DNA of 35,143 bases, taken from assembly GCA_003614675.1 (NCBI GenBank), contig ML002382.1, forward strand, positions 1-35,143. Direction: 5' to 3'. Position numbers and translations under genes: made by a program. The DNA is from Dimargaris cristalligena. Lineage: Eukaryota. The notes under the pieces are model-generated. The model made no database searches. It saw only the letters and a program-made list of their open reading frames with translations, and had not been told where the DNA came from. Below, one piece after another: positions 4,836 to 34,295 of this stretch. Positions within the stretch are counted from its first letter, which is position 1, and every line of letters begins with the position of its first letter.

Positions 4836-7800
4836 CTAAGCTTCAGTTTCGCTTGACCATTCCGCCCCTTCTCCGTGACCGCCGTCATCCTGGCCCTGCT
4901 CTTGATCCTGGCCTTGGTCTTCGTCGTGGTCATTCGACCCTTCCACCACCTCCACTTTATCGAGCTGGCCCACCCCCGTCATAAATTTACCGGGATCGGC
5001 CTGCACCATATTCATAAACAAATCCAACGCCGCTTGCAAATATTCCGGATGCTGGGTGAATACGGCGGGTGCGTCTTCGAGCACTTTGAGGGCCCCTGCT
5101 GACTGTTGGGAGTATAAACTACGCGTGGCATGGTCGATACGGGTGATAAGGTTGTCGGCCGCACGGAGGAGGTCGGGTTCGTGGAGGGACTGGGCCGGGC
5201 CACTGAACCGGTAGGGCTCAAAAGGACGATGGCTTGACGTATCGGACTTTGATTGGGCATTGGCAGAGAGGTGGTCGTTAATGAAGAATTGGGAAAGGCG
5301 TTCCACTCGGAAACAAATCTGTTCCAAATGCCATAGTGATTCCCGACTGATAAGGTGTGAGGTAGGCGAAGGTGACTCAACGATCGGAGCCCCGAAAGAA
5401 CCGCTCAAGCGATCGAATCCACCGTTGGAGCCACCCAGCATACTGATGGATGAACCATTATGTATCATTAAGCTGGCCCGATTACCCGTCGACTGGCTTA
5501 ACCCTCCACCGCTCGTGCTGCCGCTTTGACTCGCATTTAAGGCAAACGGGGGTGAGCCGTACACGCTTCCCACCCCGGACGATACCTGGTAGTTGGATAA
5601 ACTGCGGTTGCGGCGGTGCAGGGGTTGCGATGGAATGCCCACGATACTGGTACGTAGGGCCGAAAATTCCGGAGATAGGCCTGGCAGGGTATCCACGGGG
5701 GGGCGGACAATAATCCGCGGACCGGAAGATGGGGAAATGGTGGGTAACTCGGACCCCTCTACTAGGGTGGACAGGTCGGATTTGTCGCGCTGGGAACGTA
5801 GCCGGGGAGAGTTATTAAGCGATAAGCTGGGTGGGGTCAGGTTGTCCACCGACTTGAAGGAAATAGGCGTGACCGTGCTGATTCTACCTCCAACTCCGGT
5901 GGATGAGTCTCCGGATCCACTAGGCTGGGAGGGCGCGGCTGTGGTCGTAGTAGGGAACGCAGCGGTTGAGGCATCGCCCATGGGTAGTAAATTCGGCATC
6001 CCTGATGCAGTCGATGTACCCGTGACGGGTGTATTCGCACCGGTCGTATTAGTCGCCATACTAGGGGCCCCAGTCGAGCCAGGAGTGGCCGCCCCGATTT
6101 CAACCGCCCCAGTCACTGTACCCCCTTCAACCTGAGCTGCTCCCACCGCGGTTCCAGCGGCGGGTGGATTCGCCAACTCCGCCTTTTGCTTCTCGAATTC
6201 CAAACGTCCCGCCAAATCCTTAGGGTAAGCCAACACCAAAGTTTCCGGGGTTTCCAATCCCTTCAGGCGCCGTTCCCCTTTCAGAATCATATTCAGGCCT
6301 AGTTTGTTTAAGCCCTGGATATCCCGAATGACCTGTTCGCGGGTGACTTTGGCGAAGGTATTGTTTAAATAGGCGGTAGCGGAGAGAGCGGCGATGGAGG
6401 TATTGGAAGCGATGGATGACGAATGGCTACCACTGATGGGGTGGTGTATGCCGCTGATACTGGCTATACTATCCCCACCAGCACCGGGAGTAGTAACAGT
6501 ATTAGCTGCACCCACACCTGGGGCACTGCTAATGCTACCATTACTACTATTAACCAGCCCATTCTGACTCATAAACGTCGACCCCGAGGTATCAAACATA
6601 TTCATATTAAATATGATTTCCGAAACCACGTCCTGGCTTACGTAGATTTGACCCCCGTCGGCAGCACCGCAAATTCGGGCTGTTCGGTTGACCATGGGTC
6701 CGAAATAGTCCATCCGTTTAGTTACGGGGTCTTCCTCGCACACGGGGGAACCCCAATGCACGCCCATTCGTACCCATAAACCGCGGTAAATGAGTTGATT
6801 CGCATCGGTCGGGGAATAGATTTCGCGTCCGTCGGCGGAGTCGAGGATCTCCTGGGGCCAGTCGGCCTTGAGGAGTTGGAGTTGGACGGAAAGGCACCAG
6901 TGGAGGGCGGAGGGGACGGTGGCGAAGGACACCATGAATGCATCCCCTTCGGTTTTGACTTCGTAGCCACCGATGGTACGGAGCTCGCGACGCATGATGT
7001 GATTGTGGACCCGGATGGCCGACCGCATGGCCACGGGGATGGTTTCCCAGAGGAAGGTGGAGTTTTTGATGTCGGTGAACACCAGGGCTACGTCACCCGT
7101 CGGGGGCTCGACTTCCCGGTCAAGACGGGCCAGAGTAGAATCGGCGGGTAAGTCGTCCTTGGCGCCCCGCCGGGCCCGACTAATCACAGTGGGAGGCATG
7201 GAAGGCATATGGGATGGAACGTGGGCGAGTAGAGCCCCAATACCGTTGGGGTCATCTTTGAGGTCACCCAGGGAGAATTTACCCCAGTTGGCGGGGAGGA
7301 CGCGGGACCGGGCGTTGCGGTTACGGAGGCTCGTCGCTTGGCGACACAGGTCGCGCATACCCAGCACCATGACCATGAGTGATTTATCGGCACCGTAGGA
7401 TATGGCGTAATCGCGCAATTTCTGGGCGGCCAGGTTCATGTCATGGCGTAACGTCCGGGCCACATCGACCGCCATTTGGTGTGACAGATAATCCCATAGA
7501 CCACGACTCGCAATAATCAGGAACTCGTCCTCCTCGGTGACTTCGAGGTGATAGACACTGGGGTTAGCGTTCACGTAGGGCAGGAGGTGGAAGTACCCGA
7601 ACGACCGTGTCACTTCCACTTCACCCTGGACCAGCCCCTCCTGTGAAATGTACCCGCCCGCTTCTCGGATACGCGTCACTTCGTCGGGGTTAGCCGGGGT
7701 GTGTTTATCCGACAACAGCTCGGCCCGCCCTTTACGTGACGCCACGGCCATGATATTGCCCACGTTGGCCAGGTACACGTTATTGCCAACGAAGTAGGCA

Positions 7801-10800
7801 AACAGGGCACTGGCCCCCAGTTTGGAGTCGTCCCCACTGCTTCGTTCAGTATGGCTACCCAGGTGTTTATTCAGAGCCAGGAAAGCCCGCCGTAAAGCGG
7901 CAGGGGGGGCTTCGTCGCTGCGTAATTTGTCCAGCTCGGCTTTGAGAATCGGGGCCACCTGGTCGTTCAAGCAGGCAAACAAGCGCGAACCACCTCCTTC
8001 CTCGCCGCTTAGCTTATCGGCATCGGTAATCCCATTCCCGCCGTGATTGTTCGGGAGGTTTCTACCTGGGGTGGCTGAAGCGGAGTTAGTCGAGGGGGAC
8101 GGACTATCGAACAGACCAAAGAGCGACTCGTCCATCCGACCTCTAAAACTTGGCACCACGAAATCCCACAGGCACAAATTTTCGTCGGGCCCCAATTTAT
8201 CCGCCATGCCGTACTGGATCGAGTCTACTACCGACGGCGTCGTTCGCACACGCCTCGTCGCCGTCTGGTCCGGCGGACTCACCACCATGGTCACATCCAT
8301 CAACCCCAACACCCGCAGGCTCGTCAATGCCCTAAAGTGGGCCAAGTCACGGTCGTGTTTCCCGTGGGGGGCGACCACGTCCATGTGGCTGCGTTTAATT
8401 TCCAAGCGCTTGTTGTTGGATAAGTTGAGGTACTGGAGGTCGAGATTCCAGTTCCAATTCCAATCGTACGGCCAGTTGGAGATGTTGTAGCGGAGCGTAT
8501 TGCTACCCGCGTCGAGTACCGTGAGTTTGCCGATTTTGCCCAGTTCCGCAGGCAGGGTCTGGAGTTTGTTCGCGTTGACGTGGAGAACCCGGAGGGCACG
8601 AAGACGGTCCAGGTCCTCCCCAGGTAGGGTGGCGATTTGGGTACCCGATAGATACAACTCCACCAAATTGGTGTGGTGGTAAAAGGCGCCTGCGGGGATT
8701 TCGTAGATCTGTTCATTGAAGGATAAATTGAGGATCCGCAGTTCCTCAAGATACGTCAGGGGGGTGAAAATTTCCTCGTTGAAGTAATTACCTCCCATAC
8801 GGAGATCCATCAGGGTTTGGCAGAGCGGGGGTACGTTGCCCGCTAACGAGGTTCGATTAATTCCATTGGCATTGTTGCCGTTATCGTCACCATTGCCTTC
8901 CAGATCAGCGTCGAACTGACTTTGCGAGCGACTCAGAGTACGATTAATACCATTGGCACCCGTAATAGCGGAAATCCGACTGACCCGACCGGACGCCGTT
9001 TCATCGAGGGAGGATTTACGGTAGCCGCCGTAGTCGCGGACATGATGTCCCTTACCACCGGGTAAGACGGAGCGCCGCCGCTGATTGTCATCCATCGCCA
9101 GCGGAGAGGATACTGCCCCCGCGCCTGGACCGACTCCGCCGGTAAGAAGCGGGGATGGGAATGCTGCCGCTGCCGAACGGCTTCGTTCGAGCTGCGACGG
9201 ATGGGGGAAAAACTCGAGTAAGTTGGAACTTATGTTGAGCGTTCGAAGTTTCGGCGCCATCCAAATATCGACAAAGAGCGACTTGATGTTATTACTATGT
9301 ACATCCAATATTTCCAGTCGGGGCAGGCCGGCCACCTCCACGGGGAGCGATGTCAGATTATTGTTGGTACACGCCAGATGCCTTAGTCGGGATAGTTGGC
9401 CAATCGATTTGGGGAGGGAGGTCAGGTGGTTGTTGTTGATTTCGACATGCTGCAAGGAGGGTAAGAATGTAAACAGGTCGGCGGACAGTTCGTTGATTTG
9501 GCAGTGGGACAGTTTAAGGTGGACCAAGGTGTGGGAGGCGTCCCGCAGGAAAAAGTTGGTTAAGTGACTCTTGGCCAGCGACAAGTCCTTCAGGGCTTGG
9601 AAATCGCCGCTCAGTTTGGACAGGGAGTTGTGGTCACAGTACAGGATTTGTAGACGGGGGAGGCGGGAGAGAATCATGATATCCTGAATATGGTTCCGCC
9701 GCACGTCCAGTTTCTCGAGGCGTCGGAGATTTTTAAAGGTCACCGGGAGGGCCCCCGTCAAGCGATTGCAGAGGAACGACAGGTTACGTAAATCCTTTAG
9801 CTGGCCAATGCTTTCGGGGATGGCTGGGATGAAATTGAAGGACAAATCCAGCTGGGTCAGGGTTGTGATTTCACACAGCACTTCGGGGAAATTGGTGAGA
9901 TTATTGTTGGACAGGATGAGCCGGCGCAAAGTCTTGAAACGGGCGAAAGTGGGTGGGATACTCTGGAGGCGATTATTACGAATCAGCAGATCCTGGAGAT
10001 TGCGCAGCTCCTCTAGGTGCGCATCGTTCAAGTGGTGGAATTCATTGCCGGATAGATCCAGTAAAATCAGACTACTGATGTAGCGTATGCTCTGGGGTAC
10101 CCGGCGGTACTGACAGGTGGCCAGCCGAAGCTCGCGCAATTCGGTACAGAGCTGGGTGAAATCGGTGGGTAGGTCAATTTTGAGGTTCTTGGATAGATTC
10201 AGGTAGAGGATTTTACTCGGATCGTGGTAGAGGGACACCGGGATAGTCTGCAAGCGATGGCCCTTGAGGTCGATTTGGCGTCCGGCGTGAATTAAGTGGT
10301 CCAAATTGGCCGACACGCTGGGGATGGCCGCTTCAATTAGGGTGAATTGGCATAGATAGGTGTTGTCTTCCCGCATATGGGCCGATAGGTTGTCCTCCCG
10401 CGTATACCCCATTTGCTCCAAGTAGTCCCGTAGCATTAGTACGGGTTTTTCGGAAGCGCGGAGGGTCCGCTCCAATGAGTTGGCCTTTTTCACGTACAAA
10501 CAGTACTTGGATGAGTTCTCGATGTAGAACTTCTTGGCGGCTAACTGAATAATTTCGGCCGATGTGGAATTGAGGCGACAAGCCACGGTACAGAATGTCA
10601 GATCCCGACGGTAAATACGGAGGTAATATGCTGTATCATCCACCTCGGGTTCGCCCTCCTCCTCGCTGCCATCGTCTAGCCCGGCCTCATTATCGGGACC
10701 CTCGGGCCCACCCGGAAGGATGGCCCATGAATCGGGCGGGGCCCATAACTCGGGGGACTCTGCACCACCGTCGCCGTCGGAACCCCCGAAGAAATCACGG

Positions 10801-12982
10801 GGCCCTCCAACGACCGAGGGTAGGGTAGACATGGGGGGCAGGGCCCCGTTAGGACCACCGGGTTCCGAGCCGAGCCCCTCCCGATAGGGCAACGAGGTAT
10901 TGGAATTGGAGGCGGTGCGGGAATTCATGCCGATGGCGTTGTGCCGCTCTGACTCGTGTAACGTATCGCGGTCCGAATAGTCGTCATAGAGGCTACGTTG
11001 GTTGGAACCCCGGCGGGAGTAGTTGAAGGTATCGGGGTAGTCCTTGAGCGAATGGGCCTTGTCCATATTAACAATGCCTTCCATATCGCTCACATTGGTA
11101 TCGACTGGAAACGGGGATCAGAAAAGGGGACATGGGGAATGGCATCAGGGGTCAACGCCGAATAATGGGAATTATTAGAAGAGGTTTCGACCGGGGTTAT
11201 GGATAAAGTGGCGGGAAAGGGGAATAGCAGGGCCCCAAGGTAGGAATGTGCCCAGCAGCACTATATTTCGGGGTAGGGGAGTCAATACGGCCGATTCTGA
11301 CAACCATGGGAATCCGATTTGGCCAAAAAATTCACGGAAAGCACACAATTTCCTAAAATAGACTGCCTGTCTGCGGTGAGTCAGGGGTAGTAATATTAAC
11401 AGTGTATTGGCATCTCCCTCCCAAAAAAATATAAAGAATACTTACGTTGTAGGTCATAGTTATCAGCCGCCGATGGCTGCTTAAGTCGGAATGATTAATG
11501 GTCAACCCCGACAAAGGTCAAAAATAATAGCGTGGGTAAATTGCAGTAAATTAGATTAGTGGCCACTTAATTGAAATATAGAAAAGGGTCGATCAAGCTC
11601 ATTCGTGAATGTCGATGGAAATGCCCGGCCCGGAATCCAATGGATAGAGCGAAGCCCATTTTTAAAATATTGAAGCGCGGTATAGCAGTACCGGTTTAAA
11701 GCTAATAATGTTAACTACTTGAGAGACTCGTACCTTGCCAGGTGGAGGGCGTGAGAGGGACGATACGAGATGGCCCAGGCCCCAGCTGCTGTTGCTCCCA
11801 CCATCACTGCCACTTCGCTTTTCACGATGCTTGGCAATTTTCTGTCGCTCGGCCTCTTGCTCGGCTGGTGAGGTGCACGGGTTGCGGATTAAAGTAAGTA
11901 ACGAAGGGAATGTTAGTCGAACTGAGACGGTGTGAGGTGGGAAGAGAAAGGCGGACAATGGCCCTGCCGTGAACCCTTCCATAGATTGGGGACTTTTCAA
12001 AATATGAGTAAACACCCCATCAGTTGACTGGGGTAATGGGGTTGATGAATGCCGTGTAGGTCTTACCCTTCTCCTTATCGCGGTTCTTCCTCCGTTTGAA
12101 AAAGGGGAACCCTTTCTTTTTTTCCTTCGTCGGGGAATGATGCGAGGGTGGGTATACATTGGGGGAATTGGGGACCGGGGTCAGTGAACTGGTCCGGTAT
12201 GCCACCGGGGGCTGCTGACCACCACTACCACTATGGTGTACATGCGTCGTACTACTACTAACGCTACTATTCAGCGAATAATTAGCCAGTGGATTAGCGC
12301 CTTGGAGTTGGTTTGGTCGGCCCGGTGGGTGGGGGGAGTCGAGCTGGGCTGGCCCGGAAATTAATGTCCGAGCCGTGTCGTTGGAATTGCGGGGCGATAC
12401 GTTGGCCGCAGCAGGTGGGTAGGTGGCTTCGTTTAGCAAGCCATGCTGGGCTCGACTAGGTGGATGTATGCGATGGGTGGGATGCCGCGAGTCGGACTGC
12501 TTAGAGGCTCGTAGGGGAGTTGGGCTTCCGGGGTAACCGCCACTGTCGAGACCATTGGGCCGAGGGGGCGGGACCGGCGAGGCCATCTGTTGGCTTATGG
12601 TTGCGGGTAGGCGGGACCTACTCCCGCCCGGCGGGGTAGGGTAAGAAGAGGGGTGAATGGACGGCTGGATGTTCGGAGCGGATAGATTGCGCGGAGTGGC
12701 CGTGGGGTCACCACTGCTGGATGGTGGTGGCGGTTGAACCGGGGTGGGTTGAAATGAGGGGCGCTGGGCAAGAGGGGAGGGTCGGAGACTACTAGTTGGG
12801 TTGCTACCGAAGCGGTTTGAAAAGCGTTGGTGTGGCTCATTCTCGGGGTTGGGGCGGGGCGGGGCGAGTGGAGGACCACCCAAGGGAACTAGACTGGGAT
12901 ATGGAAGGCCAGCGGGGGAAGGCACCGCGGGCAATGGGGCCTCTTGGTAATAGGATGTGGGGCTCTTCTCGGGCGAGGGCAT
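4836..12982 (-). CDS. CYR1: Fungal adenylate cyclase, ~2448 aa, 4 exons (Pro-rich N-terminus, Ras-association, LRRs, PP2C-like, class III cyclase, C-terminal CAP-binding region)
   Basis: Exons complement(12067..12982, 11734..11864, 11446..11476, 4836..11104) total 7347 nt, in frame. Splicing restores the conserved 'LDTNxxDMEGIV' motif. Also present: WAPPDSWA, many LxxLxLxxN repeats, YNISNWPYDWNWNWN, catalytic VFTDIKNST/EVKTEGDAFM/MDYFGPMVNRTAR/GGQI and LKGLE. The start codon is the least certain part. Confidence 0.96.
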
Positions 12983-23490: not shown

Positions 23491-24456
23491 TATATTCCAT
23501 CTTTAGGTAGTTGACCCGCTCGAAAATATACCTGTTTTTTGAAATAGGGTTACATCGTTGTCTGGTTTTTCCATCCCAACACCACTTATGCCTGGTATTG
23601 ATTTGGGGCACTGGAATTCATCAAGTTCGGTGGAATAGTCAACATTACCGACTATTCAGATATGCACCGATGGGGAGTGCGGCGTGGTGGTCGTGGGGTG
23701 GTTGTGGTACAGCAGGCCTAACTCTTGTACTATGGGTAAAGAAGGATCGAGAAATAATTTATAGTAAATTTTAATCGGTATTATTCCAACCCAGCCATTA
23801 ACTCGGGCTTCGAAATACCTGGCGGCTGAATACACCCACTCAATTTCGCGGGATGGTCAAAATCGCCTTTACTTCTGGATTGGTCTCCAAAGAATTAGCA
23901 GCCGCTCTTAGAAAAACACACTGATGTTTCATATTACCAAACCCACACTTTCAAGTGACAGGTGTCGTCTAGTTCACCTTTGGGGGGGGGATACATCTAC
24001 TCTGGGGATGGCGCATGTTTCAGATCATTCACTTCGGTGGTTTTGTCCAGTAACATGTTCGATGTGAGCTGCTTACTGCATTTTAAACTGCCCCAATTTA
24101 CATTGTGATACCACACTACAAGTCTGTTCATCTCCATGGTTTATAACCAACCGAGATTTATAACCGCCCCAGTAGTCGTCGTCCTGATGTCTGGTTAGGC
24201 TTACACTCATTATTTTTAATATCTGTTTAATTAAATTAGGAAACGTGCACGTCTCTATCCTATTTATCTACCTTCAAAAGCCCCTTTACCATCAGTACTG
24301 GTTCATGGTCATCCCTATTATCCCAGATTTCATTTATCCGGCGGACCTTCCGTATCCCTCGTTTCTTCTATTTATCAGCTGGCAGCCCTTCGCCACACTA
24401 TCCCTTTGATTGGCGAGAGCCTACATCACCATGGAGTGCGTGGCTCGGGCTCCGTC

Positions 24457-27400
24457 ATGGCCAGATTCGTTTTCGCCCAAACCCCCATCGACCCCCAACA
24501 TGAATATGCTGTCATGTACGCCCAGATGGGGGTGGGGATATTGTCCATGGTCTGCACACTCCTAGCCGTGCTAACCTATTTTGCCATTCGGTCGTATGAC
24601 CGCTACCTCGTCAACCGTCTCTCGTTCCGCCTGATGGCCTACGTGTGTATCGTTGATTTTTTGTATACCCTAAGCCAAACCCTAGCCTATCGGGTTATCG
24701 TGGGCACCGGTGCGGCGTGTCGATTCTTTGCTTGGGGTTTTGTGTTCTTTGGGCTCGTCTCGATCATGATACGGACCATTATGGCCTTTCATCTCCAACA
24801 GCTGATTGTTTTCCATAACAACACCTATGTCGCCCGTGAGCGCTATTATTGGGGTATCACCCTGGCCTTCTGCCTGACTGTATCTTTAATTCCCCTGTTT
24901 GCCCAACAGCTAGGTGATGCGCCTTGGAAGGGGCAGTGTTGGTACCTACATAATGGCCAAAAGAGCGGGGTAGTATGGGCCTGGACCACCTATTACGGTT
25001 GGATGGTCATTTTCATCATTTACAGTGTCGTAGCATTGATAAGTATTGGGGTGGTTATTCATTATAAAATCCGGCAAGTCACTAAACAGCTACAGTCCCA
25101 GTCGGCTCAATTGGAGCTAAAACGGCACCGGCGGCGGCGGGGTTCTAGCATGAGCATCCGGTCCCTGTTGGCTATTTTAACCGATTGGACCATCCGGCGG
25201 CCCTCCAGCCGGGCCCATACTCATAACCATAACCATACTCGTACCCGTGCCCATGCCCATCCTAAGGATGCCGGTGACCTCGAATACGGGTCTAATAACC
25301 CACAGTCGACATTCCTATCTAGCGATGACGATGCATACGACTTTCCATCGACGGCCCCTCCGAGCGACCCTATTCCACCCCAGACCTGGTCCCGGCCGGG
25401 TCTGACCCACTGTACGCTTCGCGATAACACCAACCGGCCGGTCAATCTAGTCAACAAACTAGCCCTTCGGGTCATGTGGTACCCCCTCATCCCCGTGCTG
25501 TGCCAGTCCCTCGATATCGTGGAGCAGTTCAGTCAAATCGGCACCCAGCGTTTTCTATACACCCTGTATTTATTATCGACCATCGCTTCGGCCATTCAAG
25601 GATTTTTAACCGCCATGGTATTCTTCACCGACCCTGTGGTGGTAAAATGGTGGGGGCTAATGAAGCAGGATCTCATCGTGGTATTTTTTTACGAGTTCGA
25701 GTGGGAGAAGTTCCGCATGGACCACGATTTTCGGATCCGGCGCGAAAGGAATGATACTACTCTCACGAACGCCGCCCGAGACTTTACCATTAATCGCTGT
25801 CTGCGGCATTGGAATTCCCGGGGTCACCACGGGGATCGTCAGCGCCGGCGTGATTTGCCTCGGCCTAATAGGGGAGATACCCAGTCGGATACCCATTCCA
25901 ACCGCTCGTCGACGAGCGGATCAAATCCCAGTCAAGGTAGCCCGCCCTTGCCAGCCAAACGTCCGAATTGCTACCAGAAGCGCAGCGTATTGAGCGGTCG
26001 TAAATCGTTTTGGGACCGGCCTAAGCTACATAGCTACCCCTTTCGCTCCCCGCGATCACCTTCCGTCCAAGCTATACTGGACCACCACCGACGACATCGA
26101 TCAGAGCCACAGATCACCTCCAATAGTGCCATTCCATGGCTGGTACCCCCTAATCCATTCCTCCCGTTCCGACCCAGGAGAAGTGAGGGCAACGTCGGCA
26201 TCCTTGATGGACACCGCTTACGACACCCGTCTAATAATAAGCTCCCGGCTTCGTCTAATTTTCCGACTCGACGGGAGTCACTGGTATCTTTTGTCGAGGG
26301 TACCAATCACGCCAGGCAAAATCGACCCTATTCACATTATCGTCGCCGATCAGGCCAGCCCGGCCCTTTACCATGGACTGCCGAGACCTCTGATATTCCG
26401 TTTGGCGATGTACCCGCAAACGATACTTATCGTCCGCAGGGAAGTCTGGCCAGTGGAAGTACACTCCGTTCCCGTTCCATTAATGGTTGGTCCTCCCTGC
26501 GACCGGGAGGTGCTAGGGAATTAGAGAGGATAGGCCCTCCGGTGGTGGACAATAATCCCCGGGCCACTTGGGGATCGCTTGCCAGCTCCATCAATTACAA
26601 CCATATCCCGTTCCATCGCCAAAGTCTATCCGAAAGCCAGGCGATCACATCCGGCCACAACGCCTACCATACAGAAAACGTCCCGTTTAACCCGCTGGAC
26701 TCTCAACCGACGTTGGAGAGGCGGTTATACGTGAGTTCCCCCCACCCTTTGAGCTCGCAAGAAAACACGATGGGTTCTCCCGATAGTAGTGGACGACAGG
26801 GTAGCAGTGTTCCGCCTATTTCGGGGGCTTTGACGAGGGATGCCGAATATTCACAACGATCTCCCGGCCTTCACTCCATCGGGCCAGTGGGCCACTCCCT
26901 CCGTAACGATGCCTTTAGTTTGGACCCACTGTCAACGACCCGCCAGATGCCTAGTATTCAGGACCGAACCCAGCTGAGTGAATATAGCCTAGGGATAGGC
27001 CCTCTCCCGCCCCAGGATACTACTTCCAACCACCACCACTTGCGTATTCCTAAAAGCTCGGATTCGACGGCTACTGTTGCACGTCATGGCCAATCCTTGT
27101 CACCCTCAAACTCGATCGCCACCACCACCACTACCACTTCCACCTCCCTAGGGGGGCTGCCCCGGGGTCCAGTCAAACGCTCGCTCTCTACCATCTTAAC
27201 ACCGGAAGAACGCTTCCGCCTGCAGGTTAACCACTACCGCGCCTGGCGTAAACGGGCCCAGGACACCCGGGTCCGGCAATGGTGTAGCCTCCGTATCCCC
27301 GGTTCGTCACTCGACCAGCCCCTCGCGGCCATTTCCCGAACGCCCCCTTTCCACGTACCTTCCCCCCACCACCCGCTGCGCTACTACTTCGGTCGGTGCA

Positions 27401-27519
27401 TCCACTGGTGGGTCAAAAATTATTTGGTGTCCGACCGGGATAAATTGGAATTGGACTACATTATCGGGGCCATTCATTTTGATCCACGGAGCCAAAGACC
27501 GCCGTATCCGGACGCCTGA
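24457..27519 (+). CDS. 7-TM G protein-coupled receptor, Git3/cAMP-receptor-like (Dicty_CAR/CRL) type, ~1020 aa, intronless
   Basis: Seven hydrophobic segments with family motifs: GILSMVCTL, NRLSFRL....IVDF, ACRF (TM3 Cys), ERYY, CWY (ECL2 Cys), YYGW, long ICL3, LRVMWYPLIP, IQGFLTAMVFFTDP. These are followed by a ~625-aa mostly S/P/R-rich tail. First in-frame ATG is at 24457. Confidence 0.88.
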   Translation: MARFVFAQTPIDPQHEYAVMYAQMGVGILSMVCTLLAVLTYFAIRSYDRYLVNRLSFRLMAYVCIVDFLYTLSQTLAYRVIVGTGAACRFFAWGFVFFGLVSIMIRTIMAFHLQQLIVFHNNTYVARERYYWGITLAFCLTVSLIPLFAQQLGDAPWKGQCWYLHNGQKSGVVWAWTTYYGWMVIFIIYSVVALISIGVVIHYKIRQVTKQLQSQSAQLELKRHRRRRGSSMSIRSLLAILTDWTIRRPSSRAHTHNHNHTRTRAHAHPKDAGDLEYGSNNPQSTFLSSDDDAYDFPSTAPPSDPIPPQTWSRPGLTHCTLRDNTNRPVNLVNKLALRVMWYPLIPVLCQSLDIVEQFSQIGTQRFLYTLYLLSTIASAIQGFLTAMVFFTDPVVVKWWGLMKQDLIVVFFYEFEWEKFRMDHDFRIRRERNDTTLTNAARDFTINRCLRHWNSRGHHGDRQRRRDLPRPNRGDTQSDTHSNRSSTSGSNPSQGSPPLPAKRPNCYQKRSVLSGRKSFWDRPKLHSYPFRSPRSPSVQAILDHHRRHRSEPQITSNSAIPWLVPPNPFLPFRPRRSEGNVGILDGHRLRHPSNNKLPASSNFPTRRESLVSFVEGTNHARQNRPYSHYRRRSGQPGPLPWTAETSDIPFGDVPANDTYRPQGSLASGSTLRSRSINGWSSLRPGGARELERIGPPVVDNNPRATWGSLASSINYNHIPFHRQSLSESQAITSGHNAYHTENVPFNPLDSQPTLERRLYVSSPHPLSSQENTMGSPDSSGRQGSSVPPISGALTRDAEYSQRSPGLHSIGPVGHSLRNDAFSLDPLSTTRQMPSIQDRTQLSEYSLGIGPLPPQDTTSNHHHLRIPKSSDSTATVARHGQSLSPSNSIATTTTTTSTSLGGLPRGPVKRSLSTILTPEERFRLQVNHYRAWRKRAQDTRVRQWCSLRIPGSSLDQPLAAISRTPPFHVPSPHHPLRYYFGRCIHWWVKNYLVSDRDKLELDYIIGAIHFDPRSQRPPYPDA

Positions 27520-31368: not shown

Positions 31369-32154
31369 TCACGGCTTTGGGTGGGGTATTGGCCCTCAAA
31401 TTCTTTCATAATATTATTTTCCTGATAAATTAGCTATTAAAGAATCGTTTACTCTATAGCTGCTTAATTCACTAGGTAAAAATATAACTTGGTGCTGAGA
31501 ATTAAGTGGAGTACCATATGCCTGGCACACCAGTCCTCTGGGTAGCAGCCCTTTCGAGGGCAGTGGATGTACCACTAGTTCGGTGGAGTGTTCGAAAAAA
31601 TGTCGAGGCAATTAATACACAACGGGAGAGACCCTTTGCTAAATAGATACACCCTCCCCTATGCCGCGACTCCCTGCATTTTACATCTCAACCTTTTAAA
31701 GAATTAAAATGAAGATTCGACCCAATAGGCCGGACATGGTAACTCCTGTTCTACTTTTCCCTTCAGTCTGTTTCAAGGGATATGTAAATATATTGTTATG
31801 GTATACTATTATTGGAGTATGGCCGTGTAAGTATGCCGACTTCACCACCCTGGTACGAGTAAGTTGCCCATGGGTTAAGTTTCCTGAACATGCCCTGGCT
31901 TGTTTTCATTTCATCATTAATTTTCGCCCAAAATATCTATACATATAGCCTCGCTTTGCTTTCCCCTTTACTTCGTTGTATTATATCCACTCCCCACTTA
32001 TCGGATTCTCCTTACCTTTTGCCTACCCCTTCATTAGCACTTGTCCTTCACTACTATATTTGCCACCTGGAAAAATTCACTATTGGTCATTCCATTATTG
32101 TTGTTTCCCATCTCTCTCCCACCCCCTCCCTTCCCTTATTTTCGTTGGTCAATA

Positions 32155-33711
32155 ATGAAATCGTTTATTATACCTATCACTCTGCTAGGTTTATCTTTGG
32201 CCAATGCTGCGGTCAGTCGCCCCAAACCCATCGGCGGAGAAGTGGTAGTTGATGGTGATACCTTCTACGACGCGCTTGAATACCAGCCTGACCTCGGGGA
32301 AGATGGCAATATTTCAACTAAGCTTGGCTCATTTAACACAACCCCCGTGGGACTTATCTATGACATGCTAGACCGTTTGTCATTAAAAGACATGGTGCAA
32401 ATGTCTAATGTTAATGCATATTGGCACGCTATTGTCAAGCAGCATCTAGAAAACCAGGTATGTTTAAAAATAAGTTCACTGATACCATCTGTAAAAGTTT
32501 ACTGTCCATGCTATCCCTCATCTAACCACCCTGTATTTAGATTCCGCCGGAACGTAATTGCACCATTGTATAACAGACAGGCGGCTGGTAGCTCTGTGTA
32601 TTTTACTTCACAGTCGACTTCTATTGTATTAACCATTGGCCAATTCCCTTTTTCTAATCCTAATTTCAATGATATACTACAATTTCTTCCTACTCTCGTA
32701 TTATCTATCGTTAAAAAGTGTTTGGTGAATGGCATTCAGCCAATTCTAAATGGTAATCCGATTAACCTGAGCATTTTACAGTCGCTTTTTCCAATGCAAC
32801 CGATGGACGCAATCATGGCCTTTGCCTGGGAGCGAAATGGTGGTCATAACGCAGACTCATCAGAGTATCCAAGTGAGGAGGCGTATAATGGCGACTCAAC
32901 GTTACGTATTCACTCAGAAAACCTTATCAAATTAAGGGACATTAAAGCGCAGTGGGCGTACCTGGACTATACACGGATGAGTGATACCCAAAGACAGGTA
33001 CTTTTCCCCCTGTTACATTTTTTGCCGAAACTGTCCGTGAACAACATCATCAATATTTTTTCGAAATTCAGACAATTTTCTACAAACCTCGGATTGCTCT
33101 ATGAAGTTCAGGGCCTGTATCAAGGAGACCCAATGCTCGCAGTATTCACCGGACGCTTTTATGACATATGGCGGCATGTGGCCGAAAGTATACCCTTTGA
33201 ACAACTCATGGCCAGTGTCAGTGCAGTCCTCGCTACCACCGGTGAACTTGCTAAGTTGCGAGAACTATGGGATGCAGTCGTACGTGCTCCTCAATTGAAT
33301 TCTAGATCCACTGCTTACATGGCTATGTTGCTTTTAGAGTTTGACAATTCCGACCCCGCCCAAGTGCTTGAAATGGCCGGTCAAATCAACATCGACTGCG
33401 AATATGCCGGTATAATGGGATTCGAAAATGCCAAGACAAAATGCCTAAGTGTTTCTCAGATTCGGCCTAAATATCACAATGCCCTTTCTCAAATGACTGG
33501 CCGCGGGCTGGTGTATGTGCGTCGCGATTACCATGGTAATCCGGAGCTGGCCATTCGAGCTCGCCGCTCGGCCGTCAGAGCATTGTTTGGTGTAAAAGAG
33601 AATGAACCTGATGCGTTTCCTTGGTTGGATACTCCAGCTGTCGACGAACAGCTGTACATGGTGAAATATCGCGAACATTTACCTCCTCCAAGAACTCCCG
33701 GCCAACAGTAA
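32155..33711 (+). CDS. Secreted protein with FFAT-like and F-box-like motifs, candidate effector (518 aa unspliced; possible intron from 32458)
   Basis: ATG at 32155 (AATAATGA) gives the signal peptide MKSFIIPITLLGLSLANA, then DGDTFYDALE, then FNTTPVGLIYDMLDRLSLKDMVQMSNVNAYWHAIVK (F-box spacing), then ~400 aa unrecognised. The upstream TTG start in the ORF track is unlikely. Confidence 0.75.
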   Translation: MKSFIIPITLLGLSLANAAVSRPKPIGGEVVVDGDTFYDALEYQPDLGEDGNISTKLGSFNTTPVGLIYDMLDRLSLKDMVQMSNVNAYWHAIVKQHLENQVCLKISSLIPSVKVYCPCYPSSNHPVFRFRRNVIAPLYNRQAAGSSVYFTSQSTSIVLTIGQFPFSNPNFNDILQFLPTLVLSIVKKCLVNGIQPILNGNPINLSILQSLFPMQPMDAIMAFAWERNGGHNADSSEYPSEEAYNGDSTLRIHSENLIKLRDIKAQWAYLDYTRMSDTQRQVLFPLLHFLPKLSVNNIINIFSKFRQFSTNLGLLYEVQGLYQGDPMLAVFTGRFYDIWRHVAESIPFEQLMASVSAVLATTGELAKLRELWDAVVRAPQLNSRSTAYMAMLLLEFDNSDPAQVLEMAGQINIDCEYAGIMGFENAKTKCLSVSQIRPKYHNALSQMTGRGLVYVRRDYHGNPELAIRARRSAVRALFGVKENEPDAFPWLDTPAVDEQLYMVKYREHLPPPRTPGQQ

Positions 33712-34295
33712 GTTGAACTGACCCTTGAATACGTCCGAAAATCTATTTGTAGTTTTGTTTACTTTATGGCCGCTTTATTTTCTTCTTTGTCTTTAACTCG
33801 GCCCTAGAAACAGTGGTACTGTCTACTGTATGTCGGGTTATATTAAACTGGGGAACCAACTTCCTATCTTTTGTGTTCCCCTTGCTTTCTCATTTAGCTG
33901 GCTTTTCATCATGCATTATTTGCATTCCCTTGTTGTGGCCGGGTCTACCTAAACCTTATGAGCATGGCCCAATCAGACTATTTGGTTATTTGGGAAAGGT
34001 AAAGACCCCCACTGGAAGTAGGTCTTCATACTTCTACCCAGACTAGTACTTCAGAGGTCATGACTAGTCTCCCAATATCCATTATTCAATATTTCGTCTA
34101 TTTTTCTAGCTATTTATCTTGTTTAGTCAACATTGCCAGTTGTGTATACTGGCACTATAGTGACACTTGCCTTCACCCATTGGCAAGATTAGCCTTAGGT
34201 TCCAGTAGGTCACTATGTTTATGTCCTTTTCTATTTACTATCTTTGCTATAAATATCTGATGGGTAATCTCTCAATAAACACAATCAGTTTTACA

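Follow-up and report, generated by a model that had tools for sequence, protein, structure and literature searches.

A species-restricted family of candidate secreted F-box proteins in the mycoparasitic fungus Dimargaris cristalligena

The DNA analyzed here (the window) is a stretch of 35,143 nucleotides (nt) on the forward strand of contig ML002382.1 from Dimargaris cristalligena (assembly GCA_003614675.1), and it carries an open reading frame, designated P0001, that would encode a candidate secreted F-box protein of 518 residues (Table 1). Its first ATG corresponds to the Met at which the N termini of its relatives, of the family form MK.., come into alignment. An initial annotation had described the locus as a signal peptide, an FFAT-like motif, an F-box, and a novel C-terminal region, and every sequence string that it quoted proved to be in place within this one frame. 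Within the window, tblastn detected no further copy of the gene. When positions 31600 to 33900 were compared with the corresponding contig of a second strain, only four base differences were found in 2301 nt (at 32049, 33033, 33299, and 33310), with no insertion or deletion, and the interval from 32050 to 33032 is identical. One of these differences lies 5′ of the ATG, one is synonymous, and two are nonsynonymous, both within the C-terminal domain (N382S and T386A; codon positions were worked out by hand). The gene is therefore intact in the second strain, which supports the reading of the frame as a functional gene for a secreted F-box protein, and the second-strain protein P0003 is two residues apart from P0031, a public protein model at this locus.

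Table 1. Features of the P0001 locus; positions are those of the window.
Feature	Positions	Strand	Sequence, basis, or remark
Open frame P0001	32155-33711	+	ATG at 32155, 518 codons, stop 33709-33711
Signal-peptide-like leader, residues 1-21	32155-32217	+	MKSFIIPITLLGLSLANA-AVS
RPKP, conserved [R/H]P-x-P at predicted mature N terminus	32218-32229	+	Family alignment
DGD-TFYDALE (FFAT-like), residues 33-42, core 36-42	32251-32280	+	Private to P0001
EYQP leader motif	32278-32289	+	Overlaps last residue of FFAT-like core
Divergent F-box, residues 63-97	32341-32445	+	TPVGLIYDMLDRLSLKDMVQMSNVNAYWHAIVKQH
In-frame segment, 87 codons, residues 102-188	32458-32718	+	Alignment gap in every paralogue
Family-specific C-terminal domain, residues 189-518, ~330 residues	32719-33708	+	Alignment and structure model
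C-terminal tail PPPRTPGQQ	33682-33708	+	Last alignment block
Public model segments at the locus	31709-31828, 32191-32457, 32577-32591, 33133-33708		P0012 and P0031

A word-index search identified a single relative among 8000 scored candidates, namely P0002, a hypothetical protein of 449 amino acids (aa) that is likewise from D. cristalligena. The two proteins share 38% identity over 352 aa of their C-terminal parts (E value 2e-78) and 31% identity in the N-terminal 120 aa (6e-11). A profile made from P0001 and P0002 was then used to search 1.84 billion representative sequences, and this search yielded 29 proteins at an E value of 0.001 or less, including 24 at 1e-10 or better and 12 at 1e-30 or better. 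All 20 of the family proteins whose source names were looked up derive from D. cristalligena, represented by two assemblies, and the profile search recovered no orthologue from another species. Thus, P0001 is not the singleton that it had been taken to be, but belongs to a family of an estimated two dozen loci (about 25) that is restricted to D. cristalligena in the databases searched. The arrangement of leader, F-box, and C-terminal domain is conserved over about 15 intact paralogues, and because these three parts are common to paralogues, we regard each of them as real.

The leader of P0001 consists of an n-region (MK), an apolar run of 14 residues, and a polar c-region (NAAVS). The initial annotation had reported a hydrophobic leader ending in ANA; the leader is indeed present, and the predicted cleavage site (A-V-S/R-P-K-P) falls three residues after ANA, immediately before Arg22-Pro23. 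The 15 paralogues with an intact family-type N terminus all display the features by which classical rules recognize a cleavable signal peptide of the Sec type. Each carries a K or R within the first five residues, an apolar run of 12 to 19 residues (12 to 14 in 11 of the 15), and a polar c-region, and at the same aligned site each has A, G, S, or C at position -1 and A, V, T, or I at position -3. The predicted site is directly followed by [R/H/L]P in every case, with [R/H]P in 14 leaders and LP in P0022. Somewhat further on, at residues 41 to 45, the motif [EDQ][YHSL]Q[PS] is common to 6 of the 15 leaders. In the AlphaFold2 model, the leader helix spans residues 8 to 20 and thus only 13 residues. 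Given the conserved cleavage-site pattern and the short apolar region, the leader is probably cleaved rather than retained as a membrane anchor.

FBXW7 beta is an F-box isoform that is anchored to the endoplasmic reticulum (ER), and a comparable arrangement can be envisaged for P0001 if its leader were to remain uncleaved. The F-box and the C-terminal domain would then be exposed to the cytosol at the surface of a Dimargaris organelle, where the protein would act as a membrane-tethered SCF adaptor with the fungus’s own Skp1; in a variant of this scheme, a cytosolic FFAT motif beside the anchor in P0001 could bind the fungus’s own VAP. The cytosol, where this scheme places it, is the usual site of action of the F-box fold, and the low number of cysteines (0 to 6 per mature protein) is consistent with it but fits effectors that operate in a host cytosol equally well. 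However, an apolar run of 12 to 14 residues in most leaders, together with a modeled helix of 13 residues, is short for a membrane span, and the small residues found at positions -3 and -1 of a single site in all 15 leaders point to cleavage. Furthermore, charges are present on both flanks of the apolar run (MK.. and ..RP) and show no bias toward an orientation with the N terminus out and the C terminus in. We consider a tethered adaptor of this kind unlikely.

Homology to F-box domains is supported at the level of the family, whose domain appears to be genuine but divergent. Residues 73 to 107 of P0002 match the Pfam F-box family with 25 bits (cut-off 20.5) and align to residues 63 to 97 of P0001, which lie within the segment of F-box-like spacing pointed out in the initial annotation (residues about 60 to 98; 32332-32448). 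When 26 family members were scanned against Pfam at an E value of 0.1 or less, F-box was reported for 4 and F-box-like for 2, the region itself being present in about 15 of the 26. A family profile constructed from 12 F-box regions gave 19 rows at an E value of 10 or less in a search of PDB sequences, of which 9 are named F-box, FBXW, or SKP2 chains that each align in one stretch taking up most of the profile (positions 6 to 42 at most). Another 7 rows, including the top six, correspond to leucine-rich repeat (LRR), variable lymphocyte receptor, and repebody chains, and were rejected as sums over repeats of L..LP.G.F in which no single stretch passes; the remaining rows are three others.

The corresponding region of P0001 is modeled by AlphaFold as three helices (residues 65 to 74, 77 to 84, and 88 to 96) with a predicted local distance difference test score (pLDDT) of about 70, and a 46-residue segment of P0001 searched alone matches just two Pfam families, F-box-like and F-box, both in register. 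The sequence begins with T-P-V-G and retains the hydrophobic spacing of the domain, including the W in ‘VNAYW’. Among the 12 aligned F-box regions, the Pro is invariant and the Glu and Ser are at least 90% conserved. The initial annotation had proposed that conservation in paralogues be used to judge the F-box, and we find that distant paralogues retain the pattern LPxE...S..N, which suggests that the N-terminal, Skp1-facing part of the domain is under selection. Relative to canonical F-box proteins (PF00646 and PF12937; for example, Skp2 and FBXW7), the family appears to share an element of about 40 residues with three helices, an L-P-x-E start, and the hydrophobic spacing, followed by a C-terminal substrate domain. 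In contrast, canonical F-box proteins carry no signal peptide, and P0001 scores below the Pfam cut-offs and lacks both the Leu and the Glu of LPxE.

The C-terminal domain exhibits several conserved blocks, namely W.YLDYT.L, AVLATTG.F.KL.EL, LLLEF, C.YAG.LGF..A, and VY.HRD..G.PKLAIRVRRS. An AlphaFold2 model of residues 189 to 518, generated with 21 relatives, reached a pLDDT of 81.7 and a predicted template modeling score of 0.85, and depicts a mostly helical fold with a beta-hairpin at residues 453 to 470 of the full protein. No Pfam family matched this domain at an E value of 10 or less, a Foldseek search of the PDB gave nothing at 0.001 or less (best E value 0.67 for the C-terminal domain and 0.37 for the full-length model, with template modeling scores of at most 0.22), and the ESM Atlas provided no usable match. 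The novelty that the initial annotation had claimed for this region is thus borne out, with the correction that the region is common to the whole family. Weak Foldseek rows for winged-helix proteins over the last ~100 residues were rejected as noise, and a reading of the domain as ankyrin repeats was dropped since neither a Pfam match at an E value of 10 or less nor a fold match was obtained. The extreme C terminus divides members into two groups. One sub-family, comprising P0001 and the similar proteins P0002, P0032, P0006, P0009, P0011, P0019, and P0004, ends in ..[LF]PPPRxxxQ[EQ]-COOH, a conserved tail that might function as a proline-rich ligand or as a signal at the C terminus, and a second sub-family (P0014, P0016, P0020, P0030, and P0017) ends in ..P.W[LV]....

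These results could also be explained by a secretory or extracellular family in which the F-box persists as a structural remnant with no role in an SCF ligase, and whose C-terminal domain is active extracellularly or within the fungus’s own lumen or vacuole. Such a history would fit the weakness of the F-box in most members, as judged by the Pfam scan of the 26 proteins, and its sub-threshold score in P0001. It would also accommodate the 1 to 5 N-x-S/T sequons present in 11 of 15 members and a modeled C-terminal fold to which no function is assigned. However, a mere remnant would not be expected to keep LPxE...S..N across distant paralogues, and the low cysteine content of the family is unusual for extracellular fungal proteins. 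On balance, we find this explanation rather improbable.

Skp1 is a cytosolic protein, and hence an F-box that is luminal or extracellular, whether it follows a cleaved leader or a type II anchor, can meet Skp1 only in another cell. If the leader works as predicted, it would place the F-box of P0001 across a membrane and thereby bar it from the cytosolic Skp1 of the producing cell. Members of the Dimargaritales are described as parasites of other fungi that employ an appressorium and a haustorium (PMC9866270), and because D. cristalligena is a haustorial mycoparasite, delivery of the protein into a host cell is a reasonable inference. Our preferred interpretation, which we hold with only slightly better than even confidence, is that the locus belongs to a secreted, lineage-specific F-box family whose members act in the host fungus as mimics of SCF substrate adaptors. 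It is favored because an F-box is situated behind a leader that looks cleavable, because the family has expanded in a haustorial mycoparasite, and because there are precedents for parasite-made proteins of this type.

We infer a course of events that leads from secretion and host entry through Skp1 binding to the recruitment of substrates. The signal peptide would direct the protein to the ER, where cleavage before Arg22-Pro23 would be followed by exit from the parasite, most plausibly at the haustorium. The protein would subsequently enter the cytoplasm of the host fungus, with the conserved RPxP...EYQP that follows the cleavage site as a candidate leader for processing or uptake. In oomycetes, RXLR is a signal of this kind, to which we liken the Dimargaris motif. 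Once inside the host, the F-box would dock on host Skp1-Cul1 and the helical C-terminal domain would supply substrates for ubiquitination, or, alternatively, the protein might titrate Skp1. The proposal in its fullest form, in which D. cristalligena sends about 25 self-made mimics of SCF adaptors, with a new substrate-receptor fold and an RXLR-like leader, into the cytoplasm of its fungal host, is tentative, and we would put its chances at appreciably less than even.

The closest precedent is the SSGP71 family of the Hessian fly (Mayetiola destructor), whose genes encode signal peptides and whose products combine an F-box with LRRs; the F-box of the candidate vH6 binds wheat Skp1-like proteins, according to PMC7330099. 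As described in that report, SSGP71 and the Dimargaris family share the succession of a eukaryotic signal peptide, an F-box, and a substrate-type domain, a large lineage-specific expansion in a biotrophic parasite, and a proposed or demonstrated mimicry of SCF adaptors (PMC7330099). The two families differ in that the LRRs of SSGP71 are replaced in Dimargaris by a helical domain without known matches, in that the former is deployed by an insect on a plant and the latter by a fungus on a fungus, and in size, the Dimargaris family being much smaller with its roughly 25 loci. Moreover, Skp1 binding was reported for the SSGP71 member vH6 (PMC7330099), whereas for the Dimargaris family it is only predicted. 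A second set of precedents is provided by bacterial F-box effectors such as Legionella AnkB, Ralstonia RipG/GALA, and the Orientia Anks, which are reportedly also made by the parasite, target host Skp1-Cul1, and bring a substrate domain of their own. Unlike the Dimargaris proteins, these effectors travel by type III or type IV secretion without a Sec signal peptide and pair the F-box with ankyrin repeats or LRRs; also, the bacterial genes were acquired or evolved as mimics, whereas Dimargaris, being a eukaryote, would redeploy a domain of its own. Nevertheless, the combination of export signal, F-box, parasitic lifestyle, and lineage-specific expansion that characterizes architectures of the SSGP71 or AnkB type is also found in the family described here.

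Several observations weigh against the interpretation of P0001 as a secreted SCF-adaptor mimic. The leader is a candidate signal peptide that was recognized by scripted classical rules. The full-length protein matches no Pfam family at an E value of 10 or less, and its isolated F-box segment remains sub-threshold for both families that it matches, with 13.8 bits for F-box-like (E value 0.051, cut-off 24.3) and 13.4 bits for F-box (E value 0.076, cut-off 20.5). Likewise, the PDB rows named as F-box proteins are marginal, with E values from 0.027 to 1, the best being FBXW7 at 0.027. With TPVG at the position where other members have LPxE, P0001 alone among the 12 aligned regions lacks the near-invariant Glu, and its F-box is more degenerate than any other in the alignment. 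Because its F-box is below both Pfam cut-offs and the Glu is missing, P0001 may bind Skp1 poorly. The F-box assignment made in the initial annotation therefore stands for the family, where P0002 passes the Pfam cut-off, but the copy in P0001 does not reach this standard. We also know of no route by which proteins of the Dimargaris group enter a host cytoplasm.

The structure of the gene is a further point of doubt. The in-frame segment that separates the F-box from the C-terminal domain begins with GTATGT, and it may be an insertion or in part an in-frame intron. The best-looking intron signals (GTATGT...CTAAC...TTTAG) define an intron of 83 nt whose removal would shift the frame, such that the protein would end after the F-box. 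In addition, public models divide the locus into P0012 (133 aa) and P0031 (192 aa) and include no single product of 518 aa.

Indeed, the locus might not be one functional gene at all, but a decaying or misjoined copy whose real products are a protein with only the F-box and a separate C-terminal fragment. No public annotation lists the 518 codons as a single gene; two independent annotations report just a C-terminal model of 192 aa, and one reports an N-terminal model of 133 aa. Consistent with this possibility are also the good signals of the 83-nt intron, which would truncate the frame, and the many family entries that are fragments. However, all 518 codons are open in two strains, and homology to the full-length P0002 is found in the same frame on either side of the segment. 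Frame 0 of the segment is open, and the other frames carry 6 and 8 stops; when the 261 nt were shuffled with matched composition, an open frame resulted in 0.7% of cases (P 0.007). Furthermore, the model P0012, which relies on a truncating intron of 119 nt, exchanges the family-conserved leader for an unrelated first exon (31709-31828). We give very little credence to a split locus. In view of the same-frame homology on both sides of the segment, and of a frame that is unbroken in two strains, we take a product that is either full-length or spliced in frame as real, as far as the DNA can indicate. In-frame acceptors would yield introns of 123, 156, 261, or 282 nt. In the structure model, residues 111 to 164 have a pLDDT below 50, and residues 171 to 198 form a helix with a pLDDT of 62 to 85; residues 168 onward align to P0002.

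Irregular annotation is not confined to this locus, since many family entries in the databases look like fragments, and the gene models of several paralogues are probably also fragmented. At one paralogous locus, P0020 is fused in one annotation to a small upstream protein, giving P0036 (528 aa), whose start resembles a signal peptide but differs from the family leader; the other assembly splits the same locus into P0037 and P0020. This discrepancy is a further sign of unstable gene models around the family. Because its public gene models are fragmented, the family is invisible to standard secretome screens.

The initial annotation had gone beyond a secreted F-box protein and proposed that P0001, after entry into the host, binds VAP/Scs2 through TFYDALE and Skp1 through its F-box, and so establishes an SCF ligase at ER contact sites. 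The FFAT-like string is present, and its core can be compared with those of FFAT ligands such as OSBP/ORP, CERT, and XopM, which show the same arrangement of x-F-Y-D-A-x-E after acidic residues in a disordered stretch. A core of this form with two acidic residues among the six positions upstream is rare per protein. With a regular expression made for this analysis, [DEST][FY][FY][DE][ACST].[DEST], a core was found in 0.31% of 200,000 shuffles of P0001, and a core accompanied by a flank score of at least 2 in 0.026%. The region is modeled as coil with a pLDDT below 50, as is appropriate for an FFAT motif, and its sequence is identical in the second strain. Finally, FFAT-bearing effectors do exist in bacteria, as reported for XopM (PMC11631713).

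Other evidence speaks against a role for this string. Shuffling rates such as those above are expected to produce several chance cases per proteome, and because the linker that follows the leader is acidic and aromatic-rich across the family, the rate at which FFAT-like strings arise by chance is raised here. Presence of the string has therefore been verified, but not a frequency above chance. In a comparison of 45 proteins, the expression fits only P0001 and P0012, which represent one and the same locus, and the core is absent from the other 14 leaders. The family columns beneath TFYDALE read VFNGVED, LH-DASK, IHSNAVE, ISLDEVE, ITLNEAE, VNTAADQ, and the like, such that neither F2 nor Y3 is kept; in the paralogues, these two residues are aligned with V/L/I and F/H/S/N. 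Conservation in paralogues, which had been suggested as a check on the motif, thus tells against it, and the VAP half of the proposed model is not supported. In this part of the leader, it is ..E-Y-Q-P, overlapping TFYDALE, that is conserved, in a manner that differs from the FFAT pattern.

Mikitova and Levine consider that an FFAT motif should be cytoplasmic and non-helical, should have its key residues conserved, and should include no more than two sub-optimal elements, with F3>Y and a weak flank each counting as sub-optimal (PMC3261905). Our assessment employed the rules in the main text of that paper together with the regular expression. By these main-text rules, F2, D4, A5, and E7 of TFYDALE are optimal, and T1, Y3, and the flank (VVVDGD, score 2) are each sub-optimal (PMC3261905). 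The motif is identical only in the second strain of the same species, where divergence is so low that identity is uninformative, and it therefore lacks the conservation that these authors call for (PMC3261905). Unlike established FFAT ligands, TFYDALE would be luminal or extracellular in the cell that produces it, as it lies 14 residues past the predicted cleavage site; it would be cytoplasmic only if the protein were delivered to a host. Because both conservation and a cytoplasmic location in the producer are lacking, we regard a working FFAT motif as quite unlikely. As judged from the aligned sequences, the string TFYDALE is most probably a variant of the acidic leader that arose by chance, and not a ligand of VAP. 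P0001, the one member with the string, also has the weakest F-box, and the complete scheme of host entry with simultaneous VAP and Skp1 binding appears very unlikely. It is similarly hard to credit that the P0001 copy by itself has gained a working FFAT motif that parks the ligase at host ER contact sites.

Two other members are distinguished by the interval between the leader and the F-box. In P0029 (residues about 50 to 80) and P0021 (about 50 to 62), this interval contains an extreme Asp/Phe-rich tract (DDDDFDNFDDDFDNFDDDFDDF...), no segment of which fits the FFAT-like expression. Residues 1 to 40 of P0029 were also used to look for the leader on other protein families. Among 6 candidates of 89 to 286 aa, the matches were confined to P0029 and P0021, and there was no match among 24 candidates of 287 to 2000 aa; this result is weak, as the query was short and the database very large.

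The remainder of the window holds otherwise ordinary fungal genes, including a NIF3 gene that is split by an intron and a gene for a fatty-acid hydroxylase. A frame of 2093 codons on the minus strand (4836-11117) encodes a housekeeping neighbor, a fungal-type adenylate cyclase with RA, LRR, PP2C, and cyclase domains. An open frame of 1094 codons on the plus strand (24235-27519) gave no match in a Pfam scan at an E value of 0.001 or less.

F-box mimics that are secreted or injected by parasites are a known kind of protein, and a fungal family directed at fungi, with a leader and a C-terminal fold such as those described above, is undescribed in the literature searched. No paper linking Dimargaris with F-box proteins was found, and no secreted F-box protein of a fungus appeared among the titles listed. 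The main text of a D. cristalligena genome paper contains no instance of F-box, secret*, effector, or ubiquitin, although its supplements may list such families.

To our knowledge, hardly anything has been established about the ways in which biotrophic haustorial mycoparasites of the early-diverging fungi exert control over their hosts, and the family offers a candidate for effector-mediated hijacking of the ubiquitin system of a fungal host. If our interpretation is correct, this would be the first description of host-translocated F-box effectors in a fungus, and likewise the first for a parasitism of fungus on fungus. F-box mimicry, a strategy with examples in bacteria, viruses, and a gall midge, would then extend to fungi, and the family would contribute a new domain for substrate recognition and perhaps also a novel leader for uptake.

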